A stretch of 45,129 bases of DNA, taken from assembly GCA_910592345.1 (NCBI GenBank), contig CAJVPI010000179.1:1-45129 (forward strand). Direction: 5' to 3'. Positions within the stretch are counted from its first letter, which is position 1, and each line of letters opens with the position of its first letter. Positions 5,343 to 37,006 of this stretch are shown in pieces. The notes beneath the pieces are model-generated. The model made no database searches. It worked only from the letters and a program-made list of their open reading frames with translations, and was not told where the DNA came from. The position numbers and the translations under genes are program-made. The DNA is from Paraglomus brasilianum. Lineage: Eukaryota.

Positions 5343-5385
5343 TCAATGGACACAATCCATTGAAAACTAATGGCGAATGTACCCA
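5343..5385. repeat. 43-bp direct repeat copy 2
   Basis: Matches 607-649 with one mismatch. Confidence 0.9.
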
Positions 5386-27333: not shown

Positions 27334-27694
27334 TATCAGGTTGATTGCTATGTATTATAATGCATTATCCTATTACTATGGCGGATTGAATTCTATAGAA
27401 AAATCATATGTAACACACCGTTGTGCAATTTTCGAACATTCCCAATTTCAATAAACACGGTTAACTCACATTCTTAAACAAACCACATTTTTACAACCCT
27501 GGTTCAGAATAAGATTACCTACAAAAGTGCAAGTAAAATCCAAGAGACATATGTGTCTCGGTTGAAACATTGCCACCTCCGGAAAGGTTGCCGTTGTCTA
27601 CCAATGAACTTATTTTGCTCGTGAGAAAGACTATTAAGATACGTGTGCAGCAAATGTGATCAATTAACGATTTGTGACCGCGATCCATCATATA

Positions 27695-28351
27695 CAGTCA
27701 ATTCGGACACCAACTTTCCGAGGCCATCATCCGAATTATTTATATTATCGATTCATGGTGTGACAAAAACCGCCACAAATTTTGAAAAAGGTTCTAAAGT
27801 ATACTGTAATTTACGATATGAAACTTGACTAATTAGCCGACGAACGATTGATAAATAATCTACACGAATATTAATGTTATCGTTATTCTGTTCAAGAAAC
27901 GATAAAGACTGTCTTAATGCATCTTCGCCTTCTTTTAACGAAATTTTTATCAAAATTATCTTTTGTTATTATGATTTAGAACATCTTGAGTTTTTTTGCG
28001 GCAGTTAGATGTGTATAGGGTTTGGGATGTTTTTGTTTTTGGAACAATCCATAAAAAAAACTCTTTCGTAATTTGGACGGCTGGATTTTATTAAGCGTGT
28101 CCGAATTAACAAGAAATTATTACATATATTAATATGGGTAATGATCTGTAGTGGACGAATTAAAGTTAGATTTTACAATACTTAATTTATACAGTTAATC
28201 ACTTACAGTTGTCCGAACCGAATTAATCGAGATTTCATAATTATGGACGAATAAAAGGAAGGAATTTGATATGAAAAAACGAGTCCGGCATCAAGCGTCC
28301 GGATTATCGAAAATCCGAATTAAAGAGGGACGAATTAAAGGCAGTTGACTG
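27695..28351 (-). mobile_element. Internally deleted pogo/Tigger-like DNA transposon
   Basis: TA|CAGTCAA ... TTGACTG|TA termini and multiple (G/T)(A/C)CGAATTAA subterminal repeats at 28070-28340. ORF 27753-27953 (ISLKEGEDALRQSLSFLEQ...LQYTLEPF) resembles a pogo/CENP-B transposase C-terminus. Confidence 0.6.
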
Positions 28352-28362
28352 TAGTCTGTGTT

Positions 28363-28497
28363 TGCATGTTTCATGCGCGTAGGCTCCAATAAGATTGCAT
28401 GTTTCAGGCTCCATATAGGATTGCGCGTAGGCTTCCATATAAGATTGCATGCTTTATGCGCGTCGGTTCCATATAAGATTGCGTGTTTTCGGTTCCG
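28363..28497. repeat. About 5 imperfect tandem direct repeats upstream of the IS607-Fanzor element
   Basis: Recurring units built from TGCATGTTTC / TGCGCGTAGGCTCCA / TATAAGAT. Confidence 0.8.
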
Positions 28498-28610
28498 CCA
28501 TTCAAATACCGACAACCATAAACATATTTAAAGACATTATCCCCAAACTCTTTAACCATTGCAATATTGCAATATTTTGCTCATTTGAAATCCAAATCGT
28601 AAACACATAA

Positions 28611-30184
28611 TCTCTCCCCAAAACCACCACTTCAAACAAAAGGAGGTCCTCAGCTCCTCAATCTACGGATAGATCACAGGACACGAAATTGGTTCAGGGC
28701 TCAATTGGAAACGCAGGGCCCTTTTGGAACAAATATACTCTAAAGGAGTCGAAGAAGTGGTGGTTACCCGAAAAGACCGCTTGTGTTGCTTTGGATCCAA
28801 ACTTGTGGAGCTCGCAGAAGACCTACTCGCAATCGTCACAGTGTTTGTGGCGTGACATAATGGACTATGTTCGGCCGCAAATCGCAGAAGGAGAAGAGAA
28901 GCCGCCCAAGAGGTTCAAGAAGGAAGTGAAGAAACCTTTAGTAGGCAAGGTCTGACGTATTCGCGTTTATCCCAACCAGCAGGAACGGCTGAAACTCAGA
29001 AGATGGATGGGAACAGCACGATGGACATACAATCGGTGCCTTATCGCTGTCGAAAAAGAAAGTATCAAACGAGAAAAGAAGGATTACGCGCACTATGTCT
29101 CAACGCCAAAAACTTCAATGATACCGAACTTAAATGGGTCTTTGAAACTCCCTACGACATTCGCGATGAAGCAATGAACGACTTGCTTAAAGAATATTCT
29201 TCCAATTTTGCTGCCAGTCGTAAAAATTCAAGATGAAACTCCGTTCCAAAAGGATCCTCAACAATCAATTACGATACTTTCTAAACACTGTGGCAAGTCC
29301 CATGGGAAATATTTATTTTTTCCTAAAATCAAGTCAGCAGAATCTCTTCCATATAATAATAAGCTTGAATATGATAGCCGCCTTGTTATGAATCGACTTG
29401 GGGGATATTATCTTTGTATACCCAGACCACTTGAAATATGGGCTGAAAACCAAAGCCCTATATCTCAAAAGGTTTTTTTTTATTATACTATATTATCTAT
29501 TAAATTAAAACTTTAATTATTAATTATATATTTAACAATTTAATAGGAGGTGATTTCTCTGGATCCAGGTGTATGTACATTCATGACAGGTTATGATCCA
29601 AGTGGAGTAGGGTAAAAATGACATTGGCCGAATTTATCGATTAAGTCATGCATGCGACAAGCTTCAAAGTAAACGCGATTGTATGCATGGGGAAAAAATA
29701 AGCGAAAACGTTACAGGTAAAATTTATTAATTAAATTATTTATTTATTTAATATTTATTTATAATTTAACATATATACTACTTTCAATTGTAGATTACGT
29801 CGTGTTATGTTACACATTCACAAGAGGATCCGCTGTCTTGTGAATGATTGTCATCATAAACTAGCTAAATGGCTTGTGAAAACTATCGCATAATATTACT
29901 ACTCGAATTTCGCACTCAAGGAATGGACAACGACGCATTGGTTCCAAGACTGCTCGAGCCATGTGTACATGGTCACATTATCGCTTTCATTTGGCACGTG
30001 AGCATCCCTGGTGTCGAGTCGTAATTTGTACAGAAGAATACACAAGTAAACTTGTGGATCTTGCGGTTATATTAGGGGCTCCAAGGTTTTTTGCTGTCCC
30101 CAATGTAAAACAAACCTTGGTAAAGATATTAATGGTGCTCGCAATATTCTTCTTCGATATCTTACAAAAAAGGAGTCAGCTTAG
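28611..30184 (+). pseudogene. Fanzor2 / IS607 TnpB-like RNA-guided RuvC nuclease, decayed, two introns
   Basis: Stitched frames give PFWNK..KKWWLPEKT.CV.LD.N.W, RIRVYP..W.GTARWTYN, TPYDIRDEAMNDL, YDSRL, RuvC-I ISLDPGV(C)TF (D at 29562), HHKLAKWL, HYRF, shifted Glu TEEYTSK, Zn finger CGSC..CPQC, and RuvC-III DINGARNI (D at 30125), with TAG at 30182-30184. Premature TGA at 28953 and several frameshifts. Confidence 0.92.
28685..28900 (+). pseudogene. tnpA: IS607-family TnpA serine recombinase remnant (C-terminal two thirds), overlapping the Fanzor frame
   Basis: The frame starting at 28685 reads EIGSGLNWKRRALLEQIYSKGVEEVVVTRKDRLCCFGSKLVELAEDLLAIVTVFVA*HNGLCSAANRRRRR. This matches IS607 TnpA motifs D.GSGLN.KR, DRL.RFG and EL.EDL..I...F.AR..G.RS. 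The catalytic YARVS and HTH are not found. Confidence 0.88.
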
Positions 30185-30266
30185 GCTGACGCGGGAGCCT
30201 ATTCCCTGACAGGACTTGTTATTCCTAATGTGGAGTTTTATTAGTAATGATAGGTTTTAATGTAGG
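30175..30266 (+). ncRNA. Putative omegaRNA scaffold / right end of the IS607-Fanzor element
   Basis: Hairpins at 30175-30190, 30193-30206 and 30211-30258 (19/20 pairs, many G-U). GCCTA (30197-30201) is complementary to TAGGC (30263-30267). Located directly at the 3' end of the nuclease gene. Confidence 0.6.
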
Positions 30267-30689
30267 CGTCACTGTTGCAAGTAATATAAGACACACTGTA
30301 ATAGTAATCTTGCGATTACTATCATCGTAAAGTAAATTTACTTATTAGTAGCATAGCACTGGATATGAAAGCCGTTGTCATAGAAGTTGATAATGTAGAA
30401 CTTTATTGCTAAATATTAGCAAGCTGTTTATATCTCAAGATTGTAATCTCCTTGTTATATATCTCGACAGACTATTGATCTCTCAAAGGATTGATCTCGT
30501 TATCTTTAACTGTGAGAGTGTTGAACTTACATTTAATATTGACGTTGTTCTGGTCATGTACCCTTAATGAACACTTTATTTATTACATGAAGCCGCGAAT
30601 ATAACACTACGTAAATTTACTTTACGATGATAGTAATCGCAAGTCTATTATTATAGTGTGTCTTATATTACATGCTTGCAGCAGTGACG
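30267..30689. mobile_element. MITE/foldback-like element with about 75-bp terminal inverted repeats
   Basis: Arm 30267-30341 (CGTCACTGTTGCAAG..TAATATAAGACACAC..CTTGCGATTACTATCATCGTAAAGTAAATTTAC) is the near-perfect reverse complement of 30611-30689. No TSD seen. Confidence 0.75.
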
Positions 30690-30741
30690 GTTGTTAGTAA
30701 ATTAGTCGTCGTCAATTTGGGGTTCTTTGACGAGATCTATA

Positions 30742-31290
30742 CAGTATGTGACGAAAAAAGTTGCCGTTTTTATGATAACTTCCTGCATATCTATACCAAT
30801 TTTACCACAAAACGCGTTGCGTGAAAAGCAAAACAAAGCTTATGTTTATGGTATATTTCTAGTTCTATTTTTTCTGCGTTTTCATTTGTGTCTTTTTAGA
30901 AATGGATTCTCTATAGAATGTTTCACTTACGCAAAATGACAAGAAAATAAGTTTATTACATTTTTGAAAGCAAATACGCTCTGTTTCGGAATTAAGTAAA
31001 TTGACTACGTATAGCATGATATAACGGAAAGAAAATAATATGTTGGAACACAGATGTGGAAATGGTCGAAAGAACGAGGTGGATAATAATGTGGCTAGAG
31101 CGCTTGGCATATCGATTTTTTAGGTCGGTGTTTAATCAAGTGGATATCAAAAAGCAGGTGTATTAAAATGCCAATGTTTATCGAGAAACACGAAGGAGAT
31201 CGTATGTGGAGGGCGCAAAACACCTCAATGATAATTGTCTTCACTGACGAAACAGTGTTCCAATATTTAATAAACGGAATGTGGAAAAAA
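30742..31290 (+). mobile_element. Tc1 element left portion (decayed)
   Basis: TA|CAGTATGTGACGAAAAAAG terminus; peptides EHRCGNGRK..VARALG, PMFIEKH..R and IVFTDETVFQ (first Asp of DDE). Confidence 0.65.
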
Positions 31291-31420: not shown

Positions 31421-31804
31421 GAGAATATATATAAAAAACGGTGGAGGGACGGAATAATATTCCTGGTGTGATTGTAAATCAATAAAAATCATTGTCAACA
31501 AGTTATGAAAAGTAATGGGAATTGTGACAATTAAAACGAAATCGGATTAAAATGAAAATTTCTCTATTTTAATATGAAAATTCAAAAATTTTGGGGGCAA
31601 TTTTGGGTTGGGATTTAGGGTAACCTTTGTTAACAGAAGAGTATTAGTATATGTGAGTTTCACAAGCCGAATATCTACTCGAGGGAATTAAATTCTAGGA
31701 CTAATACCCGATTTGCCGGTTTGATCCTATCGCTCGCTCTTATATTCTCATTAATTAATAAAAGGTTTATTATTTAGTCTTTAAATTGTCAACGATTCTT
31801 AGTA

Positions 31805-31977
31805 CAAATGGCTCTCGATATAAGAACCCTTCGATATAAGAAAATTTTGATATAAGAAAGTATTTTTGCTGGACCCGATTTAAAATCTTATAACAAATGA
31901 CTCTCGTTATAAGAGATTTTCGATATAAGAAAGGAATTTGTTGGCCCCGATCACTTTCTTATATCGAGAGCCACTTG
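31805..31977. mobile_element. 173-bp Tc1/mariner-superfamily MITE
   Basis: 22-bp TIR CAA(A/G)TGGCTCTCGATATAAGAA with 1 mismatch, TA on both flanks (31803-4, 31978-9), and internal repeats of (C)GATATAAGA. Confidence 0.92.
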
Positions 31978-33426
31978 TATTAGGCACTTCAGAAATGTAC
32001 TTTTTAGTGATGAGCCGAATGTTGTACTAATGAAATGCTATTTCGACGATAGGATTTTGCTCTGATAAGGTTCTCTTTCCTTTTTGGTCTTTGCGCCGTG
32101 TCCACTTCTTAATACCTTTTGAATATCTGATTATATTAAGCTTGAAATAAGTACATTTAATACTCAAATCCAATGAATATTCCCGTTCTGGTGAAATTTA
32201 ACTACAGTGCACCAAAAAAGTAAAGAGAATAATATTTTTATTTACTGTACAGCAAGAGCTTGGAAGGGCAAGACTACCCAATAGTTTATCTTATTACCAT
32301 TACTTGCAATTACCTCCTTGGCATCCTACGAGCTAAATTAACAAAAATTTCTTTCGACTTATCTCAAGAAAATTTATGGTAAATGCTTTTTTTTAATACT
32401 AATAAACTGTAAGCTGAGGCGATATTTTATTTTGATAAAACAATTCTCAAGCAAAATACGAACAAACTGAATTTAAAACAAACCCTTTCTAATAAATCTT
32501 CAATCGGGTTAATATACGACGGCCAATCTATAATTTTGGTACCTTGTATGAGAAGTTCATGGTTTCCTTATGCTTCGGATCGTTGCGTTACTGGAACATT
32601 ATTTTTTTCTCACAACAATAACGTCATTTGCATAATCAAAGAGATGTTCAGTTAAAAATGTGCACCATTCATAAATATCAGCGACGATTCATTTTATTCT
32701 CGTTAGTTTTTGCGCGCACTGTACATATAATTGGTACTAATATCAACATATCCTTTCTTTATCAGCCCTGCTTCTAATTGTTTCTATTGTTGTTCTCGAG
32801 AATTGGTTTTTAATGCTAAAAGCTTTTCAGAATAAAGTCGACAAATGTCTTCCTTTTGCATAGTTTTTGTGGTGTTATAAATAAGACTGAGTGCAGCTCA
32901 GATTCATGATATAAATTCGTCATATTTGATAAGTGCTTCGTTCAATGAGCGGCTGGGTATTTTAAATCAGTTATATCTCTTGAGCAAGCGTTTGTGTTAT
33001 AACGTGGAATTTATAGCGAATTACGGAATTCTCATTAACGAATGAAGTGATGTGTTGCGTAGAAATGAAATCGGTCAAAAGGATCTATCTAGTTTTATAA
33101 TCAATTTTCCAGTTTACCATTATAATAAGCTTTCATCAAACATACAATACGGCCATGGACTTGAAACTCTGTCTATCAAACAGTTGGTTCGGTATGGTAC
33201 AATGAAAACAAAGTTTCAAACAGAAATGGGGTAAGCCAAATCTGTGGCGCCCAGCAAGTTTGAACCCTAAAATCTATCCAAGGCTGGTGGTTTTGCCATA
33301 TTAATACAATTATCATTGTGTCTATTTGCAACTTCCATAATAATGATCACATGATGAACATCTGACAATTAATCGTTATAAAAATTCAACATATATTTAC
33401 CAACCTCATACTTATAATATTTCCAA

Positions 33427-36400
33427 ATGTCTGACGCCGAATTCGCAAATGTAGAGTCTAATGACGCCGCAGACAAAGACGCACACGCAACAATGGCGTC
33501 AGAAATAGACTATTTGGAAATGTCAAAAGATGTTGGTAAAGAAAGGCAGTCAGATGACGCGATGGTTGATAAGAAAGAAGGCATAGCTCAGTCTCGACCG
33601 AGAATACGTTATACTCAAGAGCAACTGCTGGCATTAAGGCACAGCCCACTAGTAAAGCGGCCAGATGCTTTGCCACCAATGAACTCTTGGTTTGGGTAAG
33701 GATTCTGGCATATGCAACGAGTCAATCCAGTTTCTCAAGCTTCAACATTATAACTAGTCTGGTTAACTACCAAGATCTGCTTCTAGCAAGACTAATCAAC
33801 GTTGTTTTTTGTTAACTCAGCGAACACATCAAACGAGACAACAAAAAATTGACCGGAGACGGAATAGAGGGTGATAATAAAAGGTAGTTGAATGCATGCT
33901 TTAAACTCGGCGAAGACATTTTATCGAATCCGGACTGAATAGAGGTTGACTTTTTTCGTCTTTTTACCTAGCAAAAATTATGGAGAAGGCTCGAGTAAAT
34001 TGAAAGATGATGGGATAGGACTAGGGATCCCAAAGAGCCCGGCATCAAGCGTTTCGAAAAGTCCAAATGGTTCGGCACCTACTTCTCCGCGACCTGCAGG
34101 TAAATTTGGCATTCAAGTACTCCAGCTTATAGTTTGCGAGTGTGCTACTTCTTACTTTGTATTCTTAGTTCAAGAAAAGATTGTCTTAGGACCTCCGAAG
34201 ATGAATTTTGCTTCAACTTCACTGGCAGGACTGAAACCTTCTGGGGAAAAGTTACCTGCAAGATCAAACAGAACCGATGGATCGCGACGACAAGTAAGCG
34301 CGTTAAGCTGCCGTCTTTGCATTTGTTGATTTATTATGCTAACTCCAATTTTGGCAGACAGATGATTTGATATATATGAAACCTTCCAATAAAGAATTTG
34401 AACCACGAGCACCGCGAGGTCCAACTGGTGGACGAGGGTTTGTTGGCAGGGAGGCTTTGCGTGAGCGAAATCTTGCTGAAAAGGCGTCTAAAGAAGCTAA
34501 TACTTTTTCAAGCAATACAAACGGCCGACTAACAGCAGGCGCAAGACCACACGAAACCACCAGAGGTAATAGAAAGGATGGTAAATTGTGGAGCACTAAT
34601 TGGTTATGCAATATGTTTCGGATCATGACCTGTCGCACAAGTATTAATATTGTTGGGAAATCTTATCTCTTACCGCATGTTCTGTATTTAGTTGGTGTGG
34701 GCCATAAAGACTTAAATAGAACGAGCAATTCGCGGTATCATAATTACCAAGAAGATCGTTCGGAGACACCAGAATGGATGAATTATAATCCGCAAACAGA
34801 CGAAACAATGAAGAAAGGAAAGAAGAACGATGATGACAATAAAGCATTTATTGACGATATTCAAGCATGGAAGCTTAAAATGAGGGAACAAGAAAAACAT
34901 AAGCAGCGCGTGGAAAAGGATCGTAAGGATCCGAATGAAAGAAGTAGACCTCGTAGTATGTCTCGTGCTGATAGCAGCGTCTCATGGAGAGCGGATAGTA
35001 AACTCGTCGGTATAGAGGGGCATATGACGGCGATAGCCGGCGCTTTAAATGACAAGGAGAATATGATAAAAGGAGATACAACGTTCGATATTGATGGTAA
35101 TTATTTTCTTGTTCGCATGTCGTACGCTGTTACTTGGGAAAACGACTTATTCTAATTTTCAATAGTGAAACCGTCAAAGAGCACGAGCAATGTGCCCAAT
35201 GTTGACAAACTATTTGGCCTGGGTGGCTTGGATATTAACGTCCCTTTAGATCCCAATTCTTCAGCGTTTGATAATTTTCTTTCCCAACATAGACTTGCCA
35301 TCGCTGAAGAGAATGTAGGGAAGATTAATAACGTTAAAGAGCTAGAGGGCCCATCTCGCGAACAAGAAACTTCCCGATTTGCAAGGTTCTTCTCCCATAG
35401 CGCGGAGAAAGGTATTTCTGATATGGACAATGTTGACGAATCGAAAAAAAACTCTATGCCGGCACAAGTCACGTCTGCGTCTAAAGATGTACCTAGATCG
35501 GGAGCATCGATAAAATTTGAGACTTTATTTCAAAATCAGACGACAACTAACCATTCTACTCCACTGTCCCCAAGCACAACTACTAATGATGGCAAACGCA
35601 TGCTTTCAGAAGCAGAAGTACTGCAAAGCCTTGGCGCCAGGCCTTCTTCGAAGTCCCATGATTTCGATGACTCTGGTGTCGATGATGTCATGGGATTCAA
35701 CAAAATTCTTGCAGTTTTGGCAAAAGGCAATGTAAGCTCCTGTATTCATGCTGCTTTAACTTTTCTTGACGTCCTGAATAGTCGGATTTTTGTACCCTGA
35801 CGGAACAAGCAACCTGAAACCTAAAGTCTTGTTGATAACCATTTTGTAGAATGCGATGGAGCCACCCTCAAACTTTTCAGTATCCCCATCTATTCACGCA
35901 GTACCGGCTTATCAACCAGGATTAGCACATCAAGGGCTTCCTTTTAACGACCCTTCTATTATTATTGCTCAGAAACCCGTCATGGGAAACAAGCCTCCTA
36001 AACTTGAAACGCCGAATAGAGGAATGGTCATTCCTGACGCGAATGCATCAGATTCCGTCAAGAAGATTAATATGCTGTTTGGAGGGAATGTGCCGACGTC
36101 CGTTTATAGGCAGCTGAGCTCCAGGTCCGATGGTGGTTCTAGAGAGTCGTCTGGAGCTTCTTCGCCTGCCCTTAAATTTAATTCCGCAAAGCCTTTGGTA
36201 CCTAGTTTTTCACGTTCGCCGATTATACCCCAATCCCCTCCTATCTCAGACTTTCATGGATCTGATTTCAAGGCTGCAGGGCCTCCAAGGTCACCAGGTC
36301 TTCCGCAGCAGGGTAATTTCAATCCATCCCCATACCACGGAATTCATCCACCCTATTCGAATGGGAATATGTCGTTAGGACGTGACTATCCGCAACCACC

Positions 36401-37006
36401 TCCACAACCTCCACCTCCGCCACAATTAGGGCGTAATATTCCAGTAGAGCAATTGTTTAACTTGGCACCGCGGAACCCTCAACAACTACAATCTCAGTTT
36501 CAACAAGCGTCCATTCCAGTATCAATGCCTCCACCTTTTAGTTATCAGCAGCAACAACAGCAGCAACAACAGCAACATCATCATCACCATCATCAACATC
36601 AACAGCAACATCATCAACCCCACCAAGCACATCAACATCATCATCAACAACCACAACACCCTCATCACCCCCATCACCCCCATCAACAACAATTCTCAGG
36701 GCCTGCTATACCACAACAGTTTGCTGTTCATTCGCACCCTAATATGCTGCACCCAGGCGCTGAAGCTTTATTTGCAAATATGCATGGATATACACAATTC
36801 ATACCGAATATTGTCAATAGTGCTTTAGCACCTAATTCTCTATCAGGTTAGCGTGTTTGCTATTTATCTGTTTCTCTTACAAAAGTGATACTCGACAACC
36901 TAATGAGGTGCATGACTATTTAGGAATGCCATCAAATACTAGTCTTCAACAACGTAGCATGATGACTTTGGAGGAGATTGAGAGGCGCGGACTCGGTGGT
37001 CGATAA
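33427..37006 (+). CDS. eIF4E-binding protein, 4E-T/Eap1-like, multi-exon, with Q/H/P-rich C-terminus
   Basis: Canonical YxxxxL-phi motif RYTQEQLLALR..SPL in exon 1, then ETPEW, SRFARFF, and MTLEEIE in the terminal exon (36924-37006, TAA 37004-37006). Confidence 0.72.
36546..36692 (+). repeat. Coding CAN-triplet low-complexity tract (poly-Q/H)
   Basis: CAG/CAA/CAT/CAC runs encoding QQQQQQQQQQHHHHHHQHQQQHHQPH... Confidence 0.9.

Follow-up and report, generated by a model that had tools for sequence, protein, structure and literature searches.

A predicted omegaRNA scaffold in the conserved right terminus of a decayed IS607-type element of Paraglomus brasilianum

Introduction

A close homologue of the gene considered here, and one with experimentally established RNA-guided nuclease activity, is NlovFz2 of Naegleria lovaniensis (Saito et al. 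2023, PMC10432273), which has a measured TAM of CCG and a scaffold that starts with GAG, carries a GGG-TCCTTT-CCCC hairpin and ends in AAAGGCG. The stretch of DNA that we analysed, referred to below as the window, comprises 45,129 nucleotides of Paraglomus brasilianum (contig CAJVPI010000179.1 of assembly GCA_910592345.1), and within it positions 30173-30268, where a frameshifted Fanzor2 gene finishes, make up the folded and conserved right terminus of a decayed IS607-type element. By eye, the protein of the window shares with NlovFz2 the motifs WMGTARW.YN.CL, TPYD.RD, IKSAE.LP and LDPGV, and the two scaffolds share the GAG start, a GCG..GGG-loop-CCC hairpin, the complementarity of its loop to the 3' end and the terminal GGCG, with the TAM of NlovFz2, CCG, recurring at the left junction of the window element. 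They differ in that the window element includes tnpA, whereas the NlovFz2 loci, as presented in that paper, have no clear transposase association or inverted repeats, and in that the predicted window scaffold, at about 96 nt, is the shorter of the two and the window gene has two introns and is dead.

The mimivirus IS607 element of ApmFz2 (PMC11832414, PMC10530073; 9B0L) resembles that of the window in combining an IS607 TnpA with a Fanzor2, in having the rearranged RuvC glutamate before the zinc finger and in forming a pseudoknot with the last scaffold bases. The described ApmFz2 system has a TAM of GGG and an RNA of 247 nt, in contrast to the likely CG core, predicted CCG TAM and short scaffold of the window. 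Similarly, the bacterial IS607 family, including IS1535 and ISXfa1 (PMC6188088, PMC10711439), shares with the window element a serine recombinase with an N-terminal helix-turn-helix (HTH), overlapping tnpA and tnpB genes, a dinucleotide common to both junctions, a pseudoknotted right-end RNA and the lack of terminal inverted repeats. Insertion of the bacterial elements is described as invariant for GG (PMC6188088), and a 2026 review likewise gives GG as the terminus of most IS607 members and as their strict insertion site (PMC13565253), whereas the lineage of the window has CG junctions and introns of the spliceosomal type.

Proteins of the same family as the window gene, from Rhizophagus, Diversispora, Gigaspora and Ambispora, are present in the supplements of PMC10711439 and PMC10432273. 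The Glomeromycota Fanzor2 rows in those supplements give proteins only, to which the window adds element ends and an RNA. Six genus names were looked for in two supplement files of PMC10530073 and none was present. A literature search for Fanzor or IS607 in mycorrhizal fungi and for a CCG TAM, with most subscription papers and Repbase outside its scope, returned no paper on these ends or on a CG core.

Related loci and copies

Related loci were fetched with an alignment of seven C-terminal protein stretches, giving 17 viral loci and, from metagenomes, the best 80 of 421 confirmed; all 97 were picked by protein and hence blind to RNA. The RNA alignment consists of the window and 13 of the 97 loci, the closest among those extending as far as the element end, leaving out L063 and L065, which occupy the same site as L062, and L011, L012 and L022, which are cut short. 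Genomic copies were read through the metagenome loci and through same-sample contigs, which come from four runs (X1-X4) of one sample, perhaps that from which the window itself derives. Contig depth is raised over 30114-30287 in the same-sample contigs, a depth that is no copy number.

Positions 230-2409 of L006 hold an apparently complete element with both ends, a tnpA and an uninterrupted Fanzor2 frame (protein P0012). The 5'-truncated copies, exemplified by L062, were considered as minielements made of a left and a right end, a candidate that was dropped when L062 proved to be cut by another insertion and to be missing the left-end motif. Matches of bacterial genomes to a 16-letter end pattern (120 loci) were put down to chance, as they covered 22 nt of that end at most.

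The Fanzor2 pseudogene

The Fanzor2 pseudogene (28611..30184, + strand, start approximate) was delimited by three-frame translation, tblastn and domain matches; it lies in pieces from about 28611 and ends at the stop codon TAG at 30182-30184. Across the frameshifts the aspartate of RuvC-I (SLDPG), the rearranged glutamate (CTEEYTSK), the zinc finger (CGSC/CPQC) and the aspartate of RuvC-III (KDIN) are all visible. The rearranged RuvC-II glutamate stands just before the zinc finger, where CTEEYTSK aligns with NEYLTTK of ApmFz2. The motif published for Fanzor2, D-X(125,275)-[TS]-[TS]-X-X-C4 zinc finger-X(5,50)-RD (PMC3627910), is found in the window with its final arginine replaced by lysine in KDIN, and is intact in P0012. 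The pseudogene also contains an HTH_OrfB_IS605 domain (28956-29087, E 2.9e-9, above the gathering score) and a Cas12f1-like_TNB zinc-finger domain (E 2.1e-7). A Pfam scan of the raw open reading frames of the window missed the gene because of its frameshifts, of which there are at least seven, caused by deletions and accompanied by two in-frame deletions, in comparison with L013 (94% identical where aligned). P0012, a relative with an uninterrupted frame, scores above the guided_TnpB cut-off and is matched best in the PDB by ApmFz2 (9b0l, E 6.7e-22).

A protein search with the piece of gene upstream of the hairpins gave 15 matches of 61-80% identity, the closest named ones being Glomeromycota 'transposase' proteins from Diversispora epigaea, Rhizophagus clarus and Ambispora gerdemannii. 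In the table of Saito et al. the Rhizophagus and Diversispora proteins of this family are labelled FZ2 (PMC10432273), and the family members so labelled are near-identical. By its motifs and matches the window gene is assigned to Fanzor2, a known kind, and by its broken frames it is dead in this copy.

Two AT-rich GT-AG introns are predicted within the gene. The first (29472..29546, + strand) is read across by P0006 and is absent from the continuous frame of L006, and the second (29717..29793, + strand) corresponds to an alignment gap against P0008 and P0012. Both are absent from L006, whose own intron at 825-896, in the overlap of tnpA and the Fanzor gene, is absent from the window. The stretch at about 3760-3830 of L003 was also counted among the varying intron positions in the family. 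Such differences in position among family members suggest repeated intron gain, which has already been reported for Fanzors (PMC10530073).

The GT-AG introns, together with fragments of kinase, TRAPP subunit and glycosyltransferase genes, give the window a eukaryotic setting, and the named protein matches make a host from the Glomeromycota likely. Elsewhere it contains a 43-nt direct repeat of 98% identity (607-649 and 5343-5385), the copies lying 4.7 kb apart around the region of a kinase-domain open reading frame, a further small element, at 31797-31982, whose repeats measure 16 nt and whose inverted arms measure 27 nt, and an open reading frame of 331 aa with a long Gln/His-rich CAA repeat (35856-36851).

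The IS607-type element and its host MITE

The tnpA of the window is represented by two remnants separated by about 1.1 kb of other insertions. The 5' remnant (27499..27590, + strand) is the HTH part of an IS607 serine recombinase, identified by tblastn to P0014 and by DNA matches to L004, L005, L006 and L012. The 3' remnant (28682..28930, + strand) overlaps the start of the Fanzor2 gene in another frame, and its portion 28682-28852 matches the IS607 transposase model NF033518 (E 1.7e-11); being a fragment, it stays under the curated cut-off. Full TnpA, a serine recombinase with an N-terminal HTH, occurs in L006 and L024; the open reading frame of L006 matches MerR and Resolvase as well as NF033518. 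A TnpA-like match on the same strand was found in 47 of the 97 related loci (the best 80 of 421 metagenome loci and the 17 viral ones), many of the others being too short or cut.

Nested in the element are a Tc1/mariner-like MITE at 27693-28352 (TA-CAGTCAA ... TTGACTG-TA), across which one X4 contig joins, and a further inserted repeat at about 27672-28600 with tandem units of 24/34 nt (28356-28496), which splits tnpA and on which many same-sample contigs fall.

The element as a whole sits in another MITE, of about 430 bp, having inserted 8 nt inside its left arm. The left stub of this host MITE (27413..27420, + strand) matches its far arm read on the minus strand, and the rest of it, with inverted arms of 68 nt and a putative TA duplication, occupies 30269..30694 (no strand assigned). 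When the two flanks of the element were joined by script, the joined sequence matched the far arm of the downstream inverted repeat, which reads ACCGTCACTG on the minus strand from 30691. From this match it follows that the ACCG before the element is host DNA and that the empty site is preserved in the MITE far arm. The opposite order of events, with the MITE inserting beside the element, was dropped, as the far arm keeps the empty site and it was the element that went into the MITE. Terminal inverted repeats are absent at the element ends 27421 and 30268, and there is no target duplication beyond the shared core.

The predicted right-end RNA scaffold

The predicted omegaRNA scaffold (30173..30268, + strand) takes its 5' end from the GAG start of the NlovFz2 scaffold and its 3' end from the copy boundaries. 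A previous annotation from the letters of the window only, the sequence-only reading, had proposed an RNA at this place, and its architecture is borne out in part. Hairpin 1, GTCAGC/GCTGAC, is present at 30175..30190 (+ strand) with the stop TAG in its loop, as had been described. Hairpin 2 (30193..30206, + strand) is also present, with a 4-bp GGGA/TCCC stem and a 6-nt loop, GCCTAT (30197-30202), that forms the 5' strand of the pseudoknot, and not with the GGGAG-ccta-TTCCC pairing first suggested. The long stem (30211..30258, + strand) pairs 30211-30230 with 30239-30258 at 19 of 20 positions, exactly as claimed, through 13 Watson-Crick and 6 G-U pairs with 1 C-T mismatch. CCTA at 30198 and its complement TAGG at 30263, the two strands of the four-pair terminal pseudoknot of the sequence-only reading, are both where they were said to be. 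The loop of hairpin 2 is predicted to pair with the end of the scaffold, in the form of five to six pairs between GCCUAU (30197-30202) and GUAGGC (30262-30267), not four; the 3' strand, GTAGGC (30262..30267, + strand), is followed by one base, so that the terminal CG (30267..30268, + strand) would provide both the last scaffold bases and the putative crossover core.

This copy no longer has the distal part of its long stem. Relative to L001, L002 and L013, 17 nt of its distal 5' arm are missing at 30224, and the loop of the stem in the window is, by this comparison, a deletion scar; other same-sample contigs are without 8 further bases after 30229. Long stems in Fanzor2 RNA are described as flexible and variable in the ApmFz2 paper (PMC11832414). 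The RNA core of this copy, comprising hairpins 1 and 2, the pseudoknot and the base of the stem, is intact.

Folding of 30175-30266 gave a z-score of -3.99 on the + strand (0/200 shuffles as good) and -1.97 on the - strand (6/200), the former value being partly due to hand-picked bounds. With the wider bounds 30120-30290 the z-score is only -1.43, and the stretch ranks 9th (z -3.25) among 978 tiled 92-nt stretches of the window on both strands, at 25 shuffles each. RNAfold and RNAalifold give competing pairings for the 3' end of the scaffold, and a search of Rfam with 28000-31000 of the window gave no match at E values up to 1. Folding by itself is not exceptional and would not carry the RNA claim.

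Covariation and the pseudoknot

Across all stems and the pseudoknot, 84.9% of cells are paired in the 14 aligned loci, against 41-48% for slid controls. Changes on both sides affect 6 of 35 pairs (a number reached in 4/500 shuffles) in 17 cells (0/500), counts that are not probabilities since the aligned rows are relatives. The best supported part is hairpin 1, which overlaps coding sequence, with 98.6% of cells paired and two of its six pairs compensated. The weakest is the long stem, at 76-80% paired, in which 1 of 19 pairs has a two-sided change, in one cell, and the other changes are one-sided or broken, mostly G-U/A-U. The covariation that the sequence-only reading had expected at the 3' ends of the copies is accordingly seen for hairpin 1 and the pseudoknot and is weak for the long stem. 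Its claim that the structure acts as + strand RNA agrees with the conservation of the hairpins in related loci and with the distinct pair types, among which there are 17 G-U and 5 A-C, as + strand RNA would give; C-to-T decay can itself create U-G pairs and may add to the G-U count.

The pseudoknot was assessed over a wider set of 17 loci, with hairpin loops taken from the 100 nt after RuvC-III and ends set mostly from sibling copies (L003 and L062 by homology, L068 two bases past the sibling match). At least five Watson-Crick pairs between a hairpin loop and the terminal 7-mer of the same locus were found in 14 of the 17, the exceptions being L045, L062 and L094, and for 6 of 128 7-mers taken from the flanks. 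Several of these loci share one tail, and the test was repeated on the 9 with distinct tails, where loops score 44 with their own tails against 27.4 +/- 3.1 with permuted ones (1/100000). Loop and tail have changed together in such combinations as TCTTAC with GTAAG (L016), AGATAC with GTATCT (L029) and GTTCAA with TTGAAC (L068). Only 8 of the 14 aligned rows preserve the sixth pair, G30197-C30267, leaving five pseudoknot pairs as firm. A pseudoknot of this kind is reported as required for ISXfa1 TnpB and is predicted in Fanzor2 (PMC10711439).

Element ends, likely crossover core and likely TAM

The sequence-only reading had placed the element end at TGTAGG (30266), with a sharp drop of conservation directly after it and a crossover at GG. 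In the 11 close loci, a set that excludes the more diverged L007 and L010, which end in AG, G30266, C30267 and G30268 are each conserved in all 11 and T30269 in 10, and positions 30270-30278 in at most 2 of 10. Conservation hence extends two to three bases further than had been proposed, and the drop comes after 30269; a different end of conservation among the copies was an outcome that the sequence-only reading had itself named as counting against it. The same-sample contigs, all of one sample, run off after 30269 (three of X2, three of X3) or after CG (one of X1).

At the other end, the element starts with TT and has a conserved ATTTCGAACATTCC-like motif (27421..27460, + strand) in common with L004 and L006. 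ACCGTT and the motif 6 nt further on are shared by the window, L004 and L006, and the DNA before is unlike. Contigs of X1, X2 (two) and X3 diverge before A27417, those of X1 and X3 showing the same flank. The putative target or TAM, ACCG (27417-27420, + strand), forms the last four bases of the left MITE stub, with other copies diverging before 27417, and the left copy of the putative CG core would be 27419-27420 (+ strand). The left junction is known from few copies; CG also precedes ACCG in 3 of 5 of them (L004, L024 and one same-sample contig).

All junctions share the dinucleotide CG, there is no GG at the left junction, and the proposed GG crossover is not supported. On the strength of the left junction ACCG and the empty site in the MITE far arm, the crossover core is likely to be CG rather than GG, and the TAM CCG; strand exchange at CG is deduced from the rule of 2-bp identity that applies to serine recombinases (PMC6188088). 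Since GG fails as the dinucleotide of ends and target, we name the element IS607-type, of a CG-core lineage, and not a canonical GG member. A second core other than GG is seen in L029 (2159, 4170) and L030 (771, 2782), whose left junctions read ACTG and whose right ends read TG, and for relatives of this type a TAM of CTG is predicted. Elsewhere among the relatives, GG at the right end goes with AGG or GGG at the left.

The predicted guide (30269..30289, + strand) consists of host MITE DNA, and its start is placed by the conservation drop after 30269 and by analogy to the ApmFz2 numbering and the end of the NlovFz2 scaffold. CCG together with 9 or more matches to the 13 guide bases occurs at one site in the window, the MITE far arm, where 12 of the first 13 match; this agreement is explained by where the element inserted and is not necessarily a sign of function.

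Preferred and alternative explanations

Very probably, an NlovFz2-like Fanzor2 carried by an IS607-type element has its omegaRNA scaffold in 30173-30268, with G30268 as the last scaffold base, T30269 as the first base of the guide and CCG as the TAM, and intact copies would use this RNA for restorative homing. The reading most at odds with this is that the hairpins are transposase end structures acting at the DNA level, a terminator or chance folds, with no guide RNA involved. The modest rank of the fold (9/978) and the lack of an Rfam match would fit such a reading, but covariation between loop and end over 60-200 nt across diverged relatives and an excess of G-U over A-C on the + strand are both unexpected for a DNA palindrome, and the close homologue with a like scaffold is experimentally an RNA-guided nuclease (PMC10432273); we find it barely credible. 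No better placed is the version of the sequence-only reading, in which the same RNA has a 4-bp pseudoknot, crossover takes place at GG and the guide begins at C30267. It has in its favour that GG is the usual IS607 end (PMC13565253, PMC6188088), that TAGG is invariant in 11/11 close loci and that many more distant relatives end in GG; yet C30267 and G30268 are just as invariant as this GG, the left junction has CG and not GG, the empty site in the MITE far arm likewise lacks GG where the element went in and has CG there, and GGCG is the end of the NlovFz2 scaffold (PMC10432273).

The remaining alternatives keep the same system and shift its boundaries. If ACCGTT lay inside the left end, the core would be the CG just before it and the TAM CG(T) rather than CCG, with the RNA unchanged. 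Such a CG does precede ACCGTT in L004, L024 and one same-sample contig, and relatives of the GG type carry an ACTGTT motif within their left end, but that CG is missing in the window and in L006, the MITE far arm makes ACCG host DNA in this copy, L029 and L030 combine a left-hand ACTG with a right-hand TG, and GG-type left ends have TT or CT directly after the core, as in ACCG|TT; we hold this to be improbable. Somewhat less so, if still doubtful, is an assignment of T30269 to the scaffold, with the guide from C30270 and a TAM of CCGT. A T follows CG in 10/11 close loci and in 6 same-sample contigs, and IS607 TnpB is reported to absorb a fixed flanking base into its scaffold (PMC10711439), whereas G, A or C stands after CG in L003, L024, L025, L026, L018, L020 and one X1 contig, the NlovFz2 scaffold stops at G (PMC10432273), and in the ApmFz2 numbering position 0 lies two bases after the last-but-one pseudoknot pair (PMC11832414).

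Proposed mechanism

For the preferred reading, with the scaffold ending at G30268, we infer crossover, RNA expression, nuclease binding and cleavage in this system as follows. In an intact copy, a transcript reading past the end of the gene and across the element boundary would be trimmed to the scaffold plus about 15-21 nt of flank, and pairing of the loop GCCUAU with GUAGGC would form a pseudoknot gripped by the nuclease. TnpA would exchange strands over the CG core at ACCG^T sites, and after excision the empty site would be cut by Fanzor2, given a TAM of 5'-CCG-3' and a guide match, with repair from a sister copy restoring the element. The copy in the window, to go by its broken genes, cannot make either the nuclease or the transposase, and its putative RNA could act only in trans.

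Significance

The RNA is an expected part of a known system, and the link of a CG core to IS607 is the one modest novelty. A wider reading, which we offer as speculative and on the whole unlikely, is that one eukaryotic IS607 branch replaced its GG crossover by CG, and a sister branch by TG, with joint changes in the transposase core, the pseudoknot of the RNA and the TAM of the nuclease, that the CCG nucleases of the NlovFz2 type have their home in transposons of the CG branch, and that the CG branch colonised mycorrhizal fungi with lineage-specific introns, where dead copies still supply guides in trans, here against the host MITE. The CG-core part of that reading, taken alone, is probable.

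For a fungal Fanzor2 family so far only listed in tables, a predicted scaffold, a likely TAM (CCG) and element ends are now defined, and the uninterrupted relatives P0012/L006 are identified as suitable for experiments. The same ends offer a possible explanation for the CCG TAM of NlovFz2, which may reflect an IS607-type transposase that exchanges at CG and not at GG.
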